Of a DNA stretch of 64,000 bases, positions 2,433 to 24,305 are shown one piece after another. The translations under genes and the position numbers were made by a program. The notes under the pieces are model-generated. The model made no database searches and had not been told where the DNA came from. It saw only the letters and a program-made list of their open reading frames with translations. Source of the stretch: Candidatus Bathyarchaeota archaeon (GTDB taxonomy: Archaea > Thermoproteota > Bathyarchaeia > Bathyarchaeales > Bathycorpusculaceae); assembly GCA_963811105.1 (NCBI GenBank), contig CAWEPZ010000011.1, positions 1 to 64,000 of the forward strand, written 5' to 3'. Position 1 is the stretch's first letter. Each line of letters starts with the position of its first letter.

Positions 2433-3220
2433 TTACATTTCTTCCATTCGATACTCTATAATTAGTGTTTTTGTGTCAGGGTTTAACGTATCTTTTTGGA
2501 TTGTTATTGGTTTATCTGAGGCTTTGGCAAATGCACAAGCGAAAGCACTTGCCAAAATGCATCCGACTTGCGCGTGCGTTCGGGGTTGACTATTTCTGGT
2601 TTCGCTGCAAAGCGTGTTGAATACGCTGCCAGTTAGCTCTAAGGTAATGGTTCTATCTTGGATTCGAATTTGAGCATCTTCCGCAAATTTTAGTTTTTGG
2701 AATAGTCTCCCAATTATAATCTGCATTTGAGGTAGAGAAATTTTTCTGAAAGATAATCCGAGTTCACTTTCAAACATCAAGGAAAGAGCAAGTCCCGGAG
2801 GAGTGAGGAACAATCCGGTTCTCTTCTTATTGAACAACTTATCATTTGTTTCATCTGATGTAGGCAGAGTCATCTCAGGCGTTTTCGGTACGAATATTAG
2901 GCTAGATTCAAAGTCTCGAATGTTGTGAGGCGGCAAATATATTCCTTTTTCAAGTAAATCAAACTCGCTGAGGAAACGTTCAATGTTACTTCCGCTTGCA
3001 CTTGTGGAAGCCTTCAACAAGGAGAGAAACGCATGTTTCGTTGGAGTGAAGAAGAGAAGCAACATGCTCCAAAAGGAGATTGAAACGCCCAGAATAGCTA
3101 GAAATGAAGAGTTATTTAGCGCTGAGAGCACTATCATGGCTACGCCTGTTATAAGGGCGATTCCTATTATGACACAGTGATTATATCTTGATTAATTTTC
3201 GTTATATTGGTTTTAAGCAT
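2433..3220 (-). CDS. Hypothetical membrane protein with a Cys-containing C-terminal domain (loosely V4R-like)
   Basis: ORF 2433-3137 has N-terminal TM helices and C..VGCILASAFACAFAK. The probable ATG at 3220 lies across a frameshift. Confidence 0.65.
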
Positions 3221-9239: not shown

Positions 9240-10255
9240 TCAAGTTACTTTTGTTGTAAACCACGTTATTGTCTTTTTAAGTCCTTCCTCAAAATCTAAC
9301 GGTTGGTTTCCACTGGACAAGTTTTTCTAGTTTGTCTGTGTCTGGGCAACGTCTTTTTGGGTCATCTTTAGGCAGCGGGTAAAACTCAATGGTTGATTGG
9401 CATTTGGTTACTTCTTTGATTTTTTTCGCAAGTTCAAGAATGGTTATTTCTTGGGTATTCCCAACATTCACAGCTTCGCCTTTAGCTTTTTCGCAGGCTG
9501 CCAGCAGCAACAAACCAGTAACATTATCTGTTACATAACAAAATGACCTTGTCTGTTTTCCATCACCATAAACCGTTATCGGTTCACCTGTCAATGCCTG
9601 CGAAATAAAACGTGACATAGCCCTGCCATACAAACCGTCTTCTCGCAAACGTGGACCGTACGTATTAAAAATCCTTGGAAGCTTCACATCCAATCCATAC
9701 TGCTTATAATAAGCCATAAACAATGCTTCTGCAAACCGTTTCCCCTCATCATAACATGACCGAAGACCAATCGGGTTGACTTTTCCCCAGTAACTCTCAG
9801 GCGTAGGAACAACCTCCGCGTCCCCATAAACCTCCGAAGTTGAAGCAAACAACAACATAGCATCATTTTTTCTAGCTAACTCCGCCATACTAAAGCTACC
9901 TAAAGCACTAGTTTTTAAGGTCTCAATTGGATGCGCTTGATACTCATCAGGAGACGCATGCCCCGCCATATGAAAAATAAAATCAAACTTTTCTTTGCTA
10001 TCAAACGTGCAAACATCAGACTTTACAAACTTGAACAATCGGCTTTTGCTTAAGTGGTCAATGTTTTTAATTCTTCCAGTAGACAAATCATCTACAGCTG
10101 TCACATTAGCACCAAAACCTACGAGCACATCGCAAAGCCAACTGCCAATAAACCCAGCGCCGCCAGTGACCAAGCACATTCTTTCCATCAAAAACGTCTC
10201 CTTTAACGCTATTCTTTATCGTTTCAAGATCTTCGCTGATTATTTTATCAATCAT
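9240..10255 (-). CDS. UDP-glucuronate decarboxylase (UDP-xylose synthase)-like SDR
   Basis: Motifs VTGGAGFIGS, STSEVYG, SCYDEGKRFAE, RIFNTYGPR and DDPKRRCPD. The start overlaps the galU stop (ATGA). Confidence 0.88.
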
Positions 10256-11133
10256 TGAGTTTGCCTCTTGCAAAATTGCTTGTAAGATAATTCTAAAGCA
10301 TCCCAATATCTTTCAGGGCTGCCAATATCTAAATGCGAATAGCTCTTATCCAATTTCACGGCGTATACTTTTAAGTCCCCAGTCGATCAAGCTTCTGGAT
10401 GGCATCTGTTAGTTGGATTTCTCCGTTTTTTCCAGGTTTCGTTGCTTCCAATGCTTTGAAAATGATTGGGTGAAAAACATACATAGCCATGATTGCCAAG
10501 TTAGTGTTGGGTTTTTCTGGTTTTTCAACAACTGACTTAACTTTTATAATTCCTGGTTCTATTTCGTCACCTTCAACAATTCCATATTGCTTAGGGTTTT
10601 CAATTTCCAAGACTAGAAATGCCGCATCAGCATTAAGCCGCTCAAAGGCTTCAGTAGTTTTTTTAGATAATCCATGTCTTTTGAGATTATGCAGCTGTCT
10701 CCCGCGTGCACAGGCAACTTTCATTTTGAACAAACGGTTGAGCCATCAAAACTGCATTTCCAAAACCTTTCGGCTCAGGCTGGTTAACCCACATAATCGT
10801 CGAAGATTCAAGTTTATTATAAAAACCTTCAAGATCAGAAGCTTGCCCATTCTTGCCCATGTTTTTCAAGTTTTCTACACAGTTTGAATCAGGAGTGAAA
10901 TGATCTTCTATTCCTCGTTTGCCTCTGCCTACAACATAACAGAACTCGCGAAGTCCGGCATCATATAATTGTTCAAAAACCATCTGCACAACAGGCTTAC
11001 TGCATATCACCTTGGCTGTTTTTGAGAAAATTGGAAGCATTTCTTTAGGCTGTTCTTTTGTGGCTGGAAACAGACGTGTTCCCAAACCTGCTGCTGGAAT
11101 AATGACTTTGCGAATCATTAATTGTCCTCTCAT
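10252..11133 (-). CDS. galU: UTP--glucose-1-phosphate uridylyltransferase (frameshifted)
   Basis: Motifs KVIIPAAGLGTRLFPATKEQPKEMLP, QPEPKGFGNAV, VEKPE and GEIQLTDAI. Confidence 0.85.
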
Positions 11134-16010: not shown

Positions 16011-17244
16011 TTAAAAAAAAGCTCCGCCTGTTTCGAACATGTAGGACCCAATTATTAACATCCCCGTCATTGATAGCAAATATAACGATTCCAATTGATC
16101 GGTTCTTGGTGTAGATTATTGCTGATACCCAGTAGATTGGTAGCATTGGCACAGCATAACGAATGATACTGAAGACGTTTGACTGGTAATAGTATGACAA
16201 ATATCATTGAAGCGTAAAACGCCCAGTACTTTAATTGTTTTGAATCTTGAATCAAATTGTTTTTAAAAGAACTTAGAAGTTAGGTGGCTAATAAAATAGG
16301 CAGTTGGCAGAAATATTAGCGCTAGACCGATAACATAGAATGTCAATATCTTTAAGCTTGAATTAGAAAGTAAGGTTAGTTGTGTAGTGAGAAGAGGGTA
16401 AATGGCGAAGTTTAAATCGTGTGCTATTACTGTAATAGGAAAGATGCCGCCGGCAACCACGTAACCTATAAGTTGAAAAATCAGAAATGGTGACGCAACT
16501 AACGCTGAGCATGTTAAGAGTTTAATCGTTTTGGACTTGTTTTTTATTGATTGAAGTGCATAGATGAGAAATGGTATGCATATTAAGAAACCGTTGCTTC
16601 TTGTGAAGGATGCTAAGAATCCAAGTAACACTGCAATTGGCAGTTTGTCTTCTTCAAGATAATAAAAAGCTCCTAACGCTAAAGCCATGAATAACGCTTC
16701 ACTATAAATGGCAGAGTAGAATACTGCTCCACCCCAGAACGAGTAAAATGCCGTAGCGACCAGGGCTATTTGTGGTGAATTGAAGATTTTATTTGTTAGT
16801 TTATAAAAGAAATATACGCTTAAGAAGAAGGCTACGTTGCTTACTATAAAGCCTGCCAACTCCACTGCGATTGGTTAACTCCCTTTCGTTGGCACAGAGA
16901 ATGGCATGAACGGTAATGATACTGCTTTCATTGCTGCTGGATATAGTGGAAAGAAAGCCCAATCAGGCATAGCTAACACGGGGTTAAGTACGGAGATGCT
17001 AAAGTTTCTGCCAATCCAGTAGCTGATGTCTGGGTAACCTGTAGGGTAACCGTTCATGGCTATGCTTATGTAGATAACCGGAGTCAAATCGATTGAATAA
17101 GTTTACTATTGGAAGCGGATTGGTTTGATGGGTTGCTGGTTGTTGACTTGAAACAGTGAAAAGAACACTGCAAAGCACAAAAACCGCAATAACTAATATT
17201 CGGGAACTTAAACCGATAAGCAGAGCTTTATGTGTATAATTCAT
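16011..17244 (-). CDS. PIG-V/GT76-like GT-C mannosyltransferase family membrane protein (frameshifted)
   Basis: Motifs NRFDSGY, WAFFPLYP, YSEALF, ASFTRSNG and RYAVPMLPIYW. Multi-TM protein spread over 4-5 ORF fragments. Confidence 0.75.
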
Positions 17245-17481
17245 TGATTTGTGGCACCATGTTCTCTTTTCAGGTTTTGTATTAGCGCTTTTAGCATTGT
17301 TTAATCATGCCTTGATTAACGTCAAATTATCGACTGTTGGACTTAAATCATTTTCTATACTATACAATATAGAACATTAAAATCATGGAAAGAAAGTATT
17401 ACTAACAATCATTATCCCTATAGTAAGTCGCAAAGCACCTTTAAAAGATTAGCGAGATCTTAATTGAATTCATTGATTAAT

Positions 17482-17767
17482 TGGAACTGAATTATATCCA
17501 TTATGAAAAGATTGAAACTTAATTTAACTGGAGGTTTTGTAATTGAGTAAAATAATCTCAAAAAAGGATTGAAAGATGAAGGCGACATCTACAAAACAAG
17601 CTACAACAGTCAAAAAGGTAATCTCAAAACAAGGATTGAAACTCAAGAATAGTAAAGCCATTTCACCAATATTCGCAACGTCCAAAAAGGTAATCCATCA
17701 AAACAAGGATTGAAACTTAACGGAATAACTGGAATGGTTTCTGGATATTTGAGCCCAAAAAAGTAAT
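17482..17767 (+). CRISPR. Orphan degenerate CRISPR mini-array (37-bp repeat ending ATTGAAAC, 3 full-length spacers)
   Basis: Best repeat at 17680-17716: GTCCAAAAAGGTAATCCATCAAAACAAGGATTGAAAC, with an AATCC/GGATT stem. Variants at 17609-17642 and 17539-17575, a very degenerate copy at 17482-17518 and a truncated copy at 17753-17767. Spacers are 33, 37 and 36 bp. Confidence 0.8.
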
Positions 17768-18094
17768 GGAGTCTCCGTAAGAATAGGCAAATACACTAAA
17801 CTCTGCTGGATATTACACGCGGCATTTTCCTCAACAAATTAACAAAAAAAGCTAAAGATGATTTGTTGCACGCATGCATAAAGCATCATCGACCTTTTAT
17901 CTTTATCCTATAAAGGAATCAAGAAAAACTGACCAAATTATACCAAATTTAAGACTATTTTAGAGTTGGTGTATTCCAGTTTTCAAAAACTTTCAAAAAT
18001 GAAGAAACGGAATTTTATGCGTTTATTTTTATTACTTATGTCAAGCGTATATCGATATTCATAGTCGTAAATACTACTGTTAGATTGATCTTTA

Positions 18095-19318
18095 TTATAC
18101 CAATGTACCTTCTAAGGGATAACTATTACTTTTTCTTGACATTATGGATAAATAGTAACCTTTTAATTTATTCATGAGTATTTTTTCTTTTATTTGTATA
18201 TAATATGATAACACAAAAGTTATCGGAATTACTAGGGTGTAAAATAAAATATCATTGACTATTGCAGGTAATTTAAAAAACTCGATCAGCCCTGCTCCAA
18301 CGGTAAAAAATTGGAAATGGAATAAATATACACAATATGAAGACACCGCTAAAAAAGTAATTATTGATTCACATTTTTTTAGTAAGGAAAATATGTGATA
18401 TCTATTAAGCAAAAATAAAAGAAAAATACAACCTGAGACTACTGCAATGTCAAAGACAAGCATTTGACGAATTACAAAATCAATCGCGGGAATATTGAAA
18501 AAATAATATTGCCCTTCTCCCCTAAGATAAATAAAAGAAAAAACAATCGTTATTGCCAAGAATAAGGCTATTTTCTTATAAGAGAAACTATTCCAGTTTT
18601 TAATTAATTTATTTGTTACTATACCCCCTATAAATATCAAGTAATATAAAAAAAGCCTATCATCGATCATGCCAAACTTCAATCTAAGGAACCCAAATAC
18701 TAACAATGGCAAAAAAGACATGATTATTAGATGGATGACATTCTTTGAAAATTTTATCAATATCGGATAGATAAAATAACATATTGCAATAAGACCAACA
18801 AACCAAAGAAATGATCCAAAGTTTTGTATAAGTAGTTGTAATCCGATAAACTGGCTGAAAACCCACAAAATATTGATGCCTACTTTTGGGTAATAGACAG
18901 CGAAATTGGGAAACAATGCTGGAACAAATCAAGAATGTAAAGGACACAAACAGAATTATTGAAATCCAATTTAATGGCAAAATTCTGATAGCTCTCTTCT
19001 TATAAAATGCTAAAATATTTGAAAAACTCTTTATTTTTTCTGAGTAATTTAGATCGATTAATAATCCACTTATAAACATAAAGATTCCTAATCCAATAAA
19101 CATAAAATAGCCCGCTGTAATGTTCCAAAAGACCATTGCTGGGCACAAAAAAGTGCATATGAGCAAAAACAATCGAAATAATTGCTATCGCTCTTAGAAA
19201 ATCAAAAGAAATTAGCCTTTCTGGAATACCAATTCGACCTCTTTGAAGCTCATTAGTATTTCATAGCTTCTATTATAACTTCTGAAGCTCATTGTTTTGA
19301 TGTGGAATCAGTGGTCAT
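18095..19318 (-). CDS. Acyltransferase family 3 (membrane O-acyltransferase; frameshifted)
   Basis: Motifs FDFLRAIAI, FMFISG, FYKKRAIRILPL, LWFV and SYCVYLFH. Confidence 0.85.
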
Positions 19319-19743: not shown

Positions 19744-20487
19744 TTAAGATTTTTCAAGAAGTAATCTTGTTGCCTCAAGAAGATCGATACTTGTATTAAC
19801 ATTAATATTGACTCCATTTATGAAAGCACCATATGCTGAATTATCCTTTGCGATTAACTTGATCGTATTAGTGATTTCTTTTTCGTTACGTGGAAGAGAG
19901 GAAGGTGTATTTCCGATGTATTCATAAATCTTTGGATCAAAAATGTAAATGCCACATCCACGCACATTTGAGTTAGGGTTATTCGGCTTCTCTTCGGCAT
20001 TTTGGATTTTTCCATCATTTTCCAGTGCATGCAACAAGCTTGTTTTAGCTTTTCAATGTTTGCCTCATGAACTACGCCTTCAACTCCAATGGCTCTTTTG
20101 GTCCAGAACAAATCAACTATATTCTCAAGGGATTTGGATATTGTAAGATCATCGCCTAAGCTAACTGCGAAAGGTTCATGAATGAGATGCTTTTGTCAAC
20201 CCGATGGCGTGAGCTATTCCAAGTGGATTAGATTGCAAAATATATTTAATATTAATTCCAAAGTCCGACCCATCTTCAAAGTATTCTTGAATCAGATCTT
20301 TCTTAAATCCAACTATCATGTACACGTCCTCAACGCCCATCTTTTTCATATTTTCTATAACGTACTCCAAAATTGGCTTGTTCAATATTGGAAGCAAACA
20401 TTTGGGAAGCACACGGGTTAGAGGAAGACTGATTAAACGACGACCATATCCTGCAGCGGGAATAACACCAACCTTAATTCTTTTCAT
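19744..20487 (-). CDS. Sugar-phosphate nucleotidyltransferase (RmlA/GlmU-like; frameshifted)
   Basis: Motifs GVIPAAGYGRRL..LPKCLLPILNKP, QSNPLGIAHAI, EEKP and NEKEITN. Confidence 0.85.
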
Positions 20488-21244
20488 ATAATTGGATCGC
20501 TCCAATTCATTGAGGGTTAGAGTGTAAAACAAGTCGCTCTGCTTTAAATTGTTTTTTTCAAGAAACAGCCAAAGAAGCCAAGGATTAAAAGGTTTCAAAA
20601 CTCACATTTATTTCATTTATTTTTAGAGTATGCAAATACTTAACCCAAAATTACCCAAAAAACAGTTAACTTTTTAAGATTGGTAGATGCCAAAAACGTC
20701 AACGAAATATTCGAGGCTTCATTCTAAAAGCTGCAGCTTACCTTTCCACTAATTATTAACCAGAAAAGATTTCCAGATTCCGAAAAGAGAGTTGATAGTC
20801 AGAACTTTCGGAATCAGAATAAAAACTCACTTATGTACAATTCAAAGATTATGCTTACTTTGACTTTCACTTTTCCTTCGTCCAATTAGAATTTGCAGTA
20901 TTCATTAAGGATGATTGGAGAAGCGTTTAAGCTCGCTGCTAAAAAGAATGCTGCTGGCAGGTCGGATTCACTATATTGGCTTATAACACAAGAAGATTTT
21001 GAACATTCTTAGATGGAAAAGGCTAATTCTTCCTTTATTTGTATAACAATTCAGAAAAAGAAAAGAGAACAATAAGAGGAAGTAATTCTTTAACTGTCAA
21101 TATGCTACATAATTCATAGAATTCATGTTCTTTGATAAACAATCGTGAACCATTTTCTCATATGTCTCAACAGCCACGCCTCTAACCACGCATACCAGTA
21201 TCTACATTTTATCGCTTAGAGAAACATGCCGACTCTTGTTTTAA

Positions 21245-22700: not shown

Positions 22701-24305
22701 CTATTGGTTTTTAGTCTTGACTTGTGAGTTGCGTTTTTTTAATATTTTTTCTATTATCTTTAAGGGTATTTCTAATAGTCTTGATATTATGCCTAAGCCG
22801 GAAAACATTGTTCTAAGGTTGTTGACGTCTGATTGGTTGATTGCGCCAACTAATGGAGCAGAAATTAGATAAACAGCCAGAAAAAGGATTGACCCCGCAA
22901 CTAATAAGACCCAATAGGCAGCAGTGAAAAAGATAAGGAACAGATAAACGGTTACTGTGGCAAGAGCAGATGCAAGAAGGATTTTTGCTGAAGCACCAAA
23001 GTCGGCTTTGGCCCCATAGTGCTTCCATATTAGATATAGTCCGATGAACGTGCTGGGCAAAGCTGCGACTGGGAGACCGATTATAATTCCAATTATTCCT
23101 AGCGAAGGAACCAGGAGAAAAGCCACAGGAATCGATATGATAAGACTCAGCACAGCCTATTTTCAACAAAAGTTTCGTTTCTCCCATAGCAGATAAGAGG
23201 CTTCCCATGCTTCGCAAACCGAAAAGCGAGAGCAAGTAAAATACTACGCTTAAAGCGAGAAAAGGCGGAGCATAGGACCATTTGTTTCCGTAAAGTGTGC
23301 CGATAAGTGGTGTTGCAAGAACAATCATAGCCATAGTGGCGGGAACCAAAAAGAGATTTGTATACTTGACAGATGAGGCGAATACTGTTTTGAGAAGATT
23401 ATTCTCGTTTCGTGGATCCAACTTGGAGAATGCAGGAAACAAAACGTTAGCTGATAGGAATTGTAATAAAACTTAAAAGAACTATGAAATTAGTTGCAAT
23501 TTTGTAATTTCCTATCATCACATCGCTGACGTATGAAGCCATAAGAAAAGAGAAAAATGGACTCCCTAAATTGCCCACGATGCTGCCTATGCCTAAAGGG
23601 ACTCCATAGCTTAGTAGTGATTTTAGTGTTCGAACTATCTCAGACTTGTTTATTTTAGAGCGAGGAAGTTTTCTGAATATGAAGAAATAGAGGAAGACAA
23701 TTGAGATTACTCCTTGAACCACTGAAGACGAAGTAAAACCAATTATAGCGCCCGTGGCGCCATACCCAAAATACACCAGCAACGGAGCCAATAAACTGTA
23801 CACAATTGCTGAGATGACTGACAAGTAACTGTTGAGCTTCATTTGCTCAAAACCCGTAAACACGCTTGCCACTCCCGATGATATTGCTCCCGAAAGCATT
23901 GTGACTGAAACGAGAGTGATCAAGAATGCCGATTCTGGTTTGTGATAGATTGTTGATGCAAAGAAATTAGCCAATAACAGTGAAACAATTGTTAAAACCA
24001 AGCCTGTTGCGGCTCCAAAGATTAAGCCAGCAATTATTACTTTCCGCTGTTCTGCTTCTTCATTTGTCGCTCTGTATTTAGCACAGTATCTTAGTCAAAG
24101 CGGAACCGATACCCCAATCCTGAAACAGAGAAAGGGTTGCTGCCGGGATCAAGGCAACGGCATATAGTCCATAGTCTCCTGGAAGAATGAATAGACCAAG
24201 TATTATTGCTCCGACAGCTCTTATGACCGTAGAAATCGATGTGCCAAGGAACAATTGCACACTACCAACAGTTGAAGTCTTACCCATTTCCGTTGCTTTG
24301 TCCAT
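22701..24305 (-). CDS. Oligosaccharide flippase (MOP/Wzx family; frameshifted)
   Basis: Multi-TM protein with motifs YGLYAVAL, IGNYKIA, FPAFSKL and LVPSLGIIG. Confidence 0.88.

Follow-up and report, generated by a model that had tools for sequence, protein, structure and literature searches.

A decayed CRISPR mini-array in a Bathyarchaeota genome carries a spacer identical to the start of a broken pilin-like gene

Can a CRISPR array that has no cas genes beside it govern the pili of its own host, or is it what a lost immune system has left behind? This question is raised by the genome of a Candidatus Bathyarchaeota archaeon (GenBank assembly GCA_963811105.1), in the first 64,000 nucleotides of contig CAWEPZ010000011.1, the stretch of DNA that we will call the window. 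Its positions 17482-17789 (plus strand) hold a decayed mini-array of five repeat remnants (R0 to R4) and four spacers, without adjoining cas genes. The initial annotation of the window had noticed that the spacer at 17643-17679, lying between the two best repeats, translates from 17645 as KNSKAISPIFA(T), and this is borne out. From there, it had proposed that the spacer is aimed at a type IV pilin gene, possibly that of the host, and that the array could repress it. Twelve codons read without tools correctly predicted the class of the target. The proposed repression of the host pilus today finds no support in the analysis, and we consider the mini-array to be most likely an inert relic, left by the targeting of self or of close kin in a lineage whose CRISPR-Cas has been lost.

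The spacer in question, spacer 2 of the array, has one other perfect match (37/37) in the 3.49-Mb, 15-contig genome, at positions 2436-2472 (minus strand) of the 13.4-kb contig C7. This match is far beyond chance, and 100 shuffles of the window gave no match with three or fewer mismatches. The flanks differ at both borders of the spacer, with A on C7 and C in the array to the left, and T on C7 and G in the array to the right. As the identity ends exactly at the spacer borders, the two sequences form a spacer-protospacer pair and are not a duplicated segment. The flanks of the C7 protospacer are unlike repeats, and it lies outside any array; its 5' flank, read on the spacer-identical strand, is TTA. 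It covers nucleotides 20-56 (codons 7-19) of a pilin-like coding sequence, and the spacer is sense to the mRNA. The proposed protospacer at the very start of a pilin gene is confirmed for a pilin-like gene, with the small correction that it spans codons 7-19. Similarly, of what a database search with the spacer was expected to bring, a perfect host match within the first ~20 codons of a pilin-like gene was found, whereas neither viral_contigs nor metagenome_contigs holds an exact match. A 37-nt search of the window agrees that no target lies inside it, as had been stated.

The open reading frame (ORF) on C7 starts MNFKKFIKNSKAISPIFATL / MNFKKFIKNSKAISPIFATLILIAIAVIAGVVVYMF and matches the NCBIfam model of the archaellin/type IV pilin N-terminal domain (TIGR02537) with 32.1 bits, for a cut-off of 20 (E 5.8e-8), and its orthologue in G016, a genome of the same genus, does so with 34 bits. 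The Pfam Pilin_N model is not significant for either of the two, and the likeness of the C7 ORF to the UpsA pilin is weak and sub-threshold. A profile of 13 intact relatives matches archaeal pilus and filament subunits of solved structure: the PDB chain 8fk7_A over nearly its full length (E 6.4e-12, profile positions 10-144), as well as Iho670 (5kyh_A, E 9.8e-5) and the Pilin_N protein 8fjs_A (E 0.0014); this full-length likeness to pilus subunits was assessed for the intact relatives only, by sequence profile. The target on C7 is, from its predicted domain, an archaeal type IV pilin-like gene. The genome encodes a Peptidase_A24 prepilin peptidase (C3:81431) and four T2SSE assembly ATPases, two of which (C13:112622 and C5:9045) lie ~7 kb from the intact pilin clusters.

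This target is broken. The genome contains three related pilin genes: two intact ones, at C13:120550-121020 (156 aa) and C5:18652-19107 (151 aa), and the C7 copy, whose lesions were read from a nucleotide alignment with the C13 and C5 genes and two genes of G016. The C7 copy retains a TATA-like box, a GGAGGT ribosome-binding site, an ATG and 63 codons. The conserved reading frame is then interrupted by an in-frame TGA, one nucleotide is missing immediately ahead of the conserved IIKD motif, at a site where four relatives have codons of the GGCATG/AGCCTA type, and the frame shifts once more towards the 3' end. Being a base substitution, the nonsense codon is not a typical long-read indel error. 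Moreover, the copy stands outside a pilus operon: the remainder of C7:1-8000 has no match to the flanks of the compared pilin loci, and C7 gives no T2SSE match above the cut-off, unlike the C13 and C5 pilin clusters. The C7 copy is a broken ectopic pseudogene. Its 5' part and promoter are closest to the C13 gene of the same genome (87.5% over 281 nt), and a TATA-like box, TTTATAAGC, which the C13 pilin promoter shares, stands ~90 nt upstream of the spacer target. A ~48-nt promoter-like segment with a TATA-like box is common to the C7 pilin copy, an adjacent 108-aa ORF and the C13 pilin (2543-2591 and 3108-3155 of C7, locus L004; C13:121071-121118), and this 108-aa repeated ORF (C7:2687-3013) has copies on C3 and C9.

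The functional pilin of the host, which had been one suggested target, is not what the spacer matches. Indeed, the perfect match is the broken C7 copy, and the intact C13 and C5 genes each have 6/37 mismatches to spacer 2, position 2 included. Under the seed rules of type I systems, a mismatch at spacer position 2 should block interference. The first 50 residues are almost invariant in this pilin family.

The features of the mini-array are the following, in window coordinates, the intact repeat R3 serving as the reference unit for aligning the others:

17482..17518, plus strand: R0, heavily decayed repeat remnant in which only the 3' end GATTGAAAC is clearly retained; 25/37 identical to R3 (global alignment)
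17519..17546, plus strand: spacer 0, 28 nt, below normal length
17547..17575, plus strand: R1, decayed 29-nt repeat with the 3' end GATTGAAAG; against R3, 28 bases identical, 8 nt deleted and 1 substitution
17576..17608, plus strand: spacer 1, 33 nt
17609..17642, plus strand: R2, 34 nt; 34/34 bases identical to R3, 3 nt deleted; retains the 8-nt 3' end ATTGAAAC
17643..17679, plus strand: spacer 2, 37 nt, TCAAG...GCAAC; identical to nt 20-56 of the pilin-like pseudogene (C7:2436-2472, minus strand)
17680..17716, plus strand: R3, intact 37-nt repeat GTCC...GGATTGAAAC
17717..17752, plus strand: spacer 3, 36 nt
17753..17789, plus strand: R4, terminal degenerate repeat with a recognisable 5' half and a diverged 3' half; 23/37 identical to R3

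The repeat-like units end in GATTGAAAC or GATTGAAAG at 17518, 17575, 17642 and 17716, and AAAGATTGAAAC is located at 17507-17518, within R0. A diverged 3' half such as that of R4 is common in terminal repeats. R3 matches the Rfam family CRISPR-DR7 (RF01320) with 46.3 bits, for a gathering score of 37 (E 8.8e-8, model positions 1-37 of 37), and R2 does so with 25.9 bits, under this score. The ATTGAAAC of R2 is the would-be 5' handle of the CRISPR RNA (crRNA) of spacer 2. The spacer lengths (28, 33, 37 and 36 nt) compare with 31-50 nt, mostly 33-41, for the 279 spacers (277 unique) of relatives, which come from eight array segments of six genomes (G133, G135, G191, G214, G225 and G110), and the repeat-spacer period is regular. 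Window 17482-17789 is a genuine CRISPR array with a type I-B-type repeat. Apart from spacer 2, nothing in it found a target in the collections searched: neither spacer 1 nor spacer 3 is matched in the genome or, exactly, in viral_contigs, spacer 0 (searched as 17519-17547) has just 13-17 nt chance matches elsewhere in the genome, and the whole mini-array gives no match in plasmids and only 27-nt chance matches (E 0.3) to Flavobacterium phages in the phage collection.

The repeat leads to relatives, among them some with long arrays and adjoining cas operons. We searched R3, allowing up to three mismatches, in 201 same-family genomes including the one studied here (G000), and five of them carry R3-like repeats: G000 itself (one copy), the same-genus G110 (30) and G191 (21), and G135 (51) and G192, both of other genera. 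R3 differs from the array repeats of G135, G191 and G110 by two to three mismatches, and G192 has one solitary exact copy of R3 (C6:15386-15422, minus strand; L009 1501-1537) with a leader-like AT-rich stretch upstream. This solitary repeat has a TATA-like box ~100 nt upstream and no second repeat, that is, an array reduced to one repeat. A BLAST search with the region found related arrays in 5 of the 30 other genomes of the genus (G110, G133, G191, G214 and G225).

The arrays of G191 and G135 adjoin genes, in like order in both, for a Cas8-like protein (570 aa), Cas7/Csh2, Cas5b, Cas3 (HD and helicase), a protein of 231 aa occupying the Cas6 position, Cas1, a Cas2-size ORF of 98 aa and Cas4. 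We name these loci I-B-like and not I-B, because several of the subtype models stay under their cut-offs. G135 has first the cas operon, next the leader and last the array, which reads GTCC...ATTGAAAC. This order, together with the ATTGAAAC end of the repeat, makes the plus strand of the window the crRNA strand, and a crRNA of spacer 2 would therefore be sense to the pilin mRNA, as had been proposed. Around the mini-array, the window has no match to the sequences that flank the CRISPR-cas loci of G191, G135 and G192. In G191, beside cas4 (C13:295000-309100, locus L017, ~600-1400), the constant part is shifted in about eight units at the array's leader end, with CACCTAAT added before the repeat and the last nine bases, GATTGAAAC, absent, while the period is still ~74 nt. 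Judging from these bases, such units could not give a normal 5' handle.

Can the mini-array act in its own genome? The genome is 96.65% complete with 4.3% contamination, and no gene for Cas6, Cas7, Cas5, Cas8, Cas3, Cas4, Cas2 or a RAMP protein is detectable in it. When seven Cas proteins of G191 were compared with the whole genome by tblastn, the sole match was a 30.7%-identical Cas1 remnant, and family searches (E <= 0.001) found no Cas6_C, RAMP, Cas2, Cas5d or DevR match in the genome. The matches of the Cas3-core model were all under the cut-off, and the same model also responds in 14 of 14 control genomes. The Cas1 remnant (C2:550389-550976) is a 195-aa C-terminal part (PF01867, 87.9 bits, model positions 145-282) with no cas neighbours and no adjacent array, and it may come from a different system or from a casposon-like element. 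A k-mer repeat-chain scan found no other array in the genome. Three further chain matches are ordinary tandem repeats, of which two are coding, and were rejected. At C11:111683, on the contig that carries the array, what had been suspected to be another repeat remnant was rejected as well, as it is a homologous flank beside a conserved 121-aa gene, which is not Cas2.

The spacer is also alone among its relatives, in which similar spacers had been thought worth seeking. With up to three mismatches, spacer 2 is in no array of the 200 other family genomes, and among the 30 other genomes of the genus it is seen only as the pilin gene of G220. Likewise, none of the 277 unique spacers of the six relatives matches the compared pilin loci, the viral loci or the G000 genome. 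A regulator would show conservation, so its lack in relatives counts against one. A metagenome scan for the repeat end and a degenerate pilin motif within 25 nt of each other, in sense orientation only, gave one match, a coding tandem repeat and no CRISPR array. Judged by titles and abstracts, the papers found in a full-text search hold no description of a pilin-targeting spacer in archaea.

From this, we infer the following history. A type I-B-type system with Cas1-Cas2(-Cas4) would have cut spacer 2 out of the initial 60 bases of a copy of a type IV pilin gene: either the organism's own ectopic copy, now on C7, or near-identical DNA of close kin or of a mobile element. The lineage would then have lost its cas genes, and the array would have begun to erode. 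As for the order of these events, self-targeting may have selected for the loss of cas, or the loss of cas may have come first and let the targeted DNA settle. The spacer and its perfect target would today coexist without harm, as there is nothing to process the crRNA or to make use of it, and a present function in the control of the pilus is not expected.

Such a history has precedents. Self-targeting spacers occur in ~18% of CRISPR-bearing genomes (Stern et al. 2010, as cited in the review PMC6990116). The autoimmunity relics of that review, in what it tells of them, resemble our case in their 100% match in the same genome outside the array, their missing cas genes, their eroded repeats and their unconserved spacer, whereas here the target is the signal-peptide region of a pseudogene paralog of a type IV pilin, the host belongs to the Bathyarchaeia and the repeat is of type I-B type. 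Self-targeting spacers with degenerated systems are thus an already known pattern, and no new mechanism is opened. What the locus offers is a clean archaeal example of a perfect self-match beside a dead CRISPR system, and it fits the view that self- or kin-targeting spacers and CRISPR-Cas loss go together. The spacers that Haloferax is reported to acquire on mating against chromosomal genes of kin are comparable, since here too the spacer falls where a housekeeping-type surface gene is most conserved and has one to three mismatches to the pilin genes of other species in this group. In contrast to them, the sole perfect match lies in the same assembly, and nothing points to mating or to an exchange of DNA in this lineage. 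If the spacer nevertheless came from the DNA of kin, it would be a data point for CRISPR recording how uncultured archaea that are related exchange DNA, here in the best-conserved part of their major pilin gene.

Several observations weigh against the mini-array being an inert relic, or leave room for other origins of its target. At the completeness of this genome, a cas operon could still lie on unassembled or unbinned DNA. The pilin genes of other Bathyarchaeota species are just one (L111, that is G220), two (L106) or three (G016, L114) bases off spacer 2, and a virus-type terminase module lies on C7, 5.6 kb from the pilin copy; both agree with the alternative, already voiced in the initial annotation, that the target belongs to a mobile element or to a related archaeon. 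C7 may lie outside the chromosome, or even in other cells than the array contig. The C7 site with its TTA flank may never have been targetable, and no protospacer adjacent motif (PAM) emerged for the repeat system, since 0/277 unique spacers of the relatives matched a protospacer in the sequences compared. All 279 spacers, searched against the genome and the compared pilin and viral loci, gave only 22 matches of at least 24 nt, all to their own arrays. A set of 109 of the relatives' spacers found a single 17-nt match in the G000 genome and, together with five mini-array queries, three matches of 15-19 nt in 80 viral loci, while the G135 array compared with five related genomes gave array-to-array matches and one weak match of 43 nt (82%).

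The decay itself also raises difficulties. Across R1 and R2 (17547-17642), 11 nt were deleted for one substitution, and spacers 0 and 1 are also short; this near deletion-only erosion is unusual for neutral decay and may reflect a real deletion bias, slippage or a local assembly error. Finally, both spacer 2 and its target have been preserved without a change, and the two best repeats are those on either side of spacer 2, while the remainder of the array is eroded. Over 37 nt, this preservation could be chance, but selection would produce it too.

Among the alternatives, the one to be taken most seriously, although we hold it to be unlikely, is that the array is still-usable immunity against foreign DNA. 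C7 would then be a related strain's contig binned along with the genome, a mobile element, integrated or episomal, or a virus-derived island with a captured pilin, and the Cas proteins would come from DNA missing in the bin. The patchy presence of CRISPR in the genus (5 of 30 other genomes), the 4.3% contamination and the 96.65% completeness would all allow it, and the pilin copy indeed lies away from the canonical pilin loci. At 9351-10709, C7 encodes the large subunit of a terminase (E 8.4e-37 for phrog_2 and E 8.7e-15 for Pfam Terminase_6N), a protein with 158 relatives among 168 candidate IMG/VR stretches, at up to 83% identity and on 30-44 kb contigs, and the ORFs of C7:1-3300 are small and without family. 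However, the virus-shared module is confined to C7:8156-12573. In a comparison at the protein level with the 80 related viral loci kept, the terminase was matched in 80/80, a 354-aa ATPase in 66/80 and a 203-aa ORF in 71/80, whereas the pilin ORF and all ORFs of C7:1-3300 were matched in 0/80. The pilin fragment has no relative in viral_contigs either (60 pattern matches, none confirmed), where, as in metagenome_contigs, the exact spacer is absent. The array, moreover, is itself eroded, and the 5' part of the C7 pilin is nearest to the genome's own C13 gene.

The terminase module is in fact multi-copy and decaying on the large contigs of this genome, with a 93% copy on C6 (24609-29185) whose genes are split, and with fragments, mostly of the 5' part, on ten contigs in all. 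C7 is bounded by repeated sequence, and this multiplicity explains why it is short; it does not mark the pilin end as viral, or C7 as foreign. The whole module measures 4.6 kb (C7 8049-12624) and comprises the 203-aa ORF, the large terminase subunit, a 116-aa ORF, the ATPase of 354 aa, which has a GNAT-like tail, and an ORF of 145 aa. Up to 80 contigs of IMG/VR contain it too, and many of them end shortly after it. No capsid genes were seen beside it in C7 or C6, and its behaviour is closer to that of a small mobile or repeat element than to that of a whole provirus.

Between the pilin copy and this module, the minus strand of C7 (3335-7570) holds a large gene for a surface protein that has an Ig-like domain (Big_3_5), broken up into about eight ORFs in succession. 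Sequence of C7:1-7600 is present in the Logan contigs of 20 public sequencing runs, at no more than 14% of the sampled words and with no RNA run among them. In four of these runs the contigs are those of relatives, 90-99% identical, in pieces that fall for the most part on C7:3300-7600 and hardly at all on the pilin copy. The relatives' contigs in these four soil runs differ from the split surface-protein gene by 1-2 nt indels, for example by two bases inserted after 6469 in all four.

We give little credence to a second alternative, in which a mobile element that integrated in the chromosome left there a mini-array aimed at a competitor element, represented by C7. The size of the array (4-5 repeats, 3-4 spacers) fits, and R3 is identical to the repeat of G192, which is of another genus, and closer to it than to the same-genus arrays, hinting at a horizontal origin. 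In the part of the literature on Bathyarchaeia viruses that concerns us, mini-arrays of four repeats and three spacers are described, with host-type repeats and even 100% self-matching spacers (PMC10541130). These virus-borne mini-arrays (Medvedeva et al. 2019, via PMC10541130; the Bathyarchaeia Chiyouvirus) share with ours the size, the host-type repeat and the 100% self-match in the assembly. Ours differs from them in lying on a 1.5-Mb chromosomal contig amid glycosylation genes, with decayed repeats. Its neighbours, glycosylation genes and a universal stress protein, are not of viral or plasmid kind, and the genome has no host array or Cas from which such an element could borrow.

We find it highly improbable that the crRNA of the mini-array guides a Cascade-like complex to the 5' end of the pilin gene and represses it, for surface remodelling or virus-receptor control, in the manner of CreA/CreR. 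CreR, as far as the preprint describes it, has a first repeat (psi-R1) that keeps the 5' handle and a second one (psi-R2) that keeps the 3' part; CreA and CreR lie in cas intergenic regions and are partially complementary to promoters, for example over 15 nt, the partial match avoiding Cas3 cleavage and Cascade being required (bioRxiv 10.1101/2023.03.10.532045, which cites the CreTA of Li et al. 2021). Our mini-array recalls this layout, being a small degenerate array of type I-B background in which spacer 2 lies between R2, which retains the bases of the 5' handle, and the well-kept R3, with a perfectly preserved target ~90 nt past the TATA-like box shared with the C13 promoter. CreA/CreR is the closest functional analogue in these sources, yet three of the four defining features tested are not found here. 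Indeed, the mini-array is far from any cas gene and amid glycosylation genes, the match is a full 37/37 inside coding sequence, and the genes for Cascade, like those for Cas6 and Cas3, are not detectable in the genome. The perfect target, moreover, is a pseudogene, the functional pilins have six mismatches that include position 2, and no relative conserves the spacer.

A variant, to which we likewise assign a very small chance, is that the mini-array is kept, so that Cascade from outside silences or eliminates the ectopic, promoter-bearing 63-codon pilin fragment, or acts on incoming pilin genes of close kin, with their one to three mismatches. Only the spacer that has a target sits between a handle-bearing and an intact repeat, and Cascade could come from a mobile element or an unassembled locus. 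The product of the 63-codon fragment, a signal peptide and a hydrophobic helix, could jam the prepilin peptidase or the assembly of the pilus. If true, a kept array would be a CRISPR-guided control of a surface-filament gene in Bathyarchaeia. A regulatory reading would matter greatly, but no measurement here supports it.

Scarcely credible, finally, is an assembly artefact in which the array or the C7 copy is chimeric or mis-polished, so that their coexistence or the pseudogene state is unreal: the changes of R1 and R2 and several C7 gene lesions are 1-3 nt indels, of the kind that separates the C7 surface-protein gene from its relatives in the four public runs, but spacer 2 and R3 (74 nt) are error-free against the independent sequences of C7 and G192, the nonsense codon of the C7 pilin is a base substitution in a conserved frame, and long genes elsewhere are intact, with open frames of 905-966 aa without internal stops.

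The surroundings of the mini-array agree with the initial description of an orphan array among glycosylation genes. Among ten ORFs scanned within 9-23 kb of the window, there are eight genes of glycosylation, stress or polysaccharide kind and two without family, but no viral one; next to the array are an epimerase, a family 2 glycosyltransferase (GT2), an acyltransferase, a mannosyltransferase fragment and a universal stress protein. The glycosylation genes at 16263-16865, 18095-18916, 20176-20598 and 22813-23442 cover only parts of their Pfam models, as seen for Mannosyl_trans2 (111-256 of 443), NTP_transferase (2-92 of 245) and Polysacc_synt_3 (236-289 of 293), and the glycosylation island looks rich in gene fragments. 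Window 16021-17249, just before the array, has a 78% paralogue in the same genome, at C13:186367-187591.

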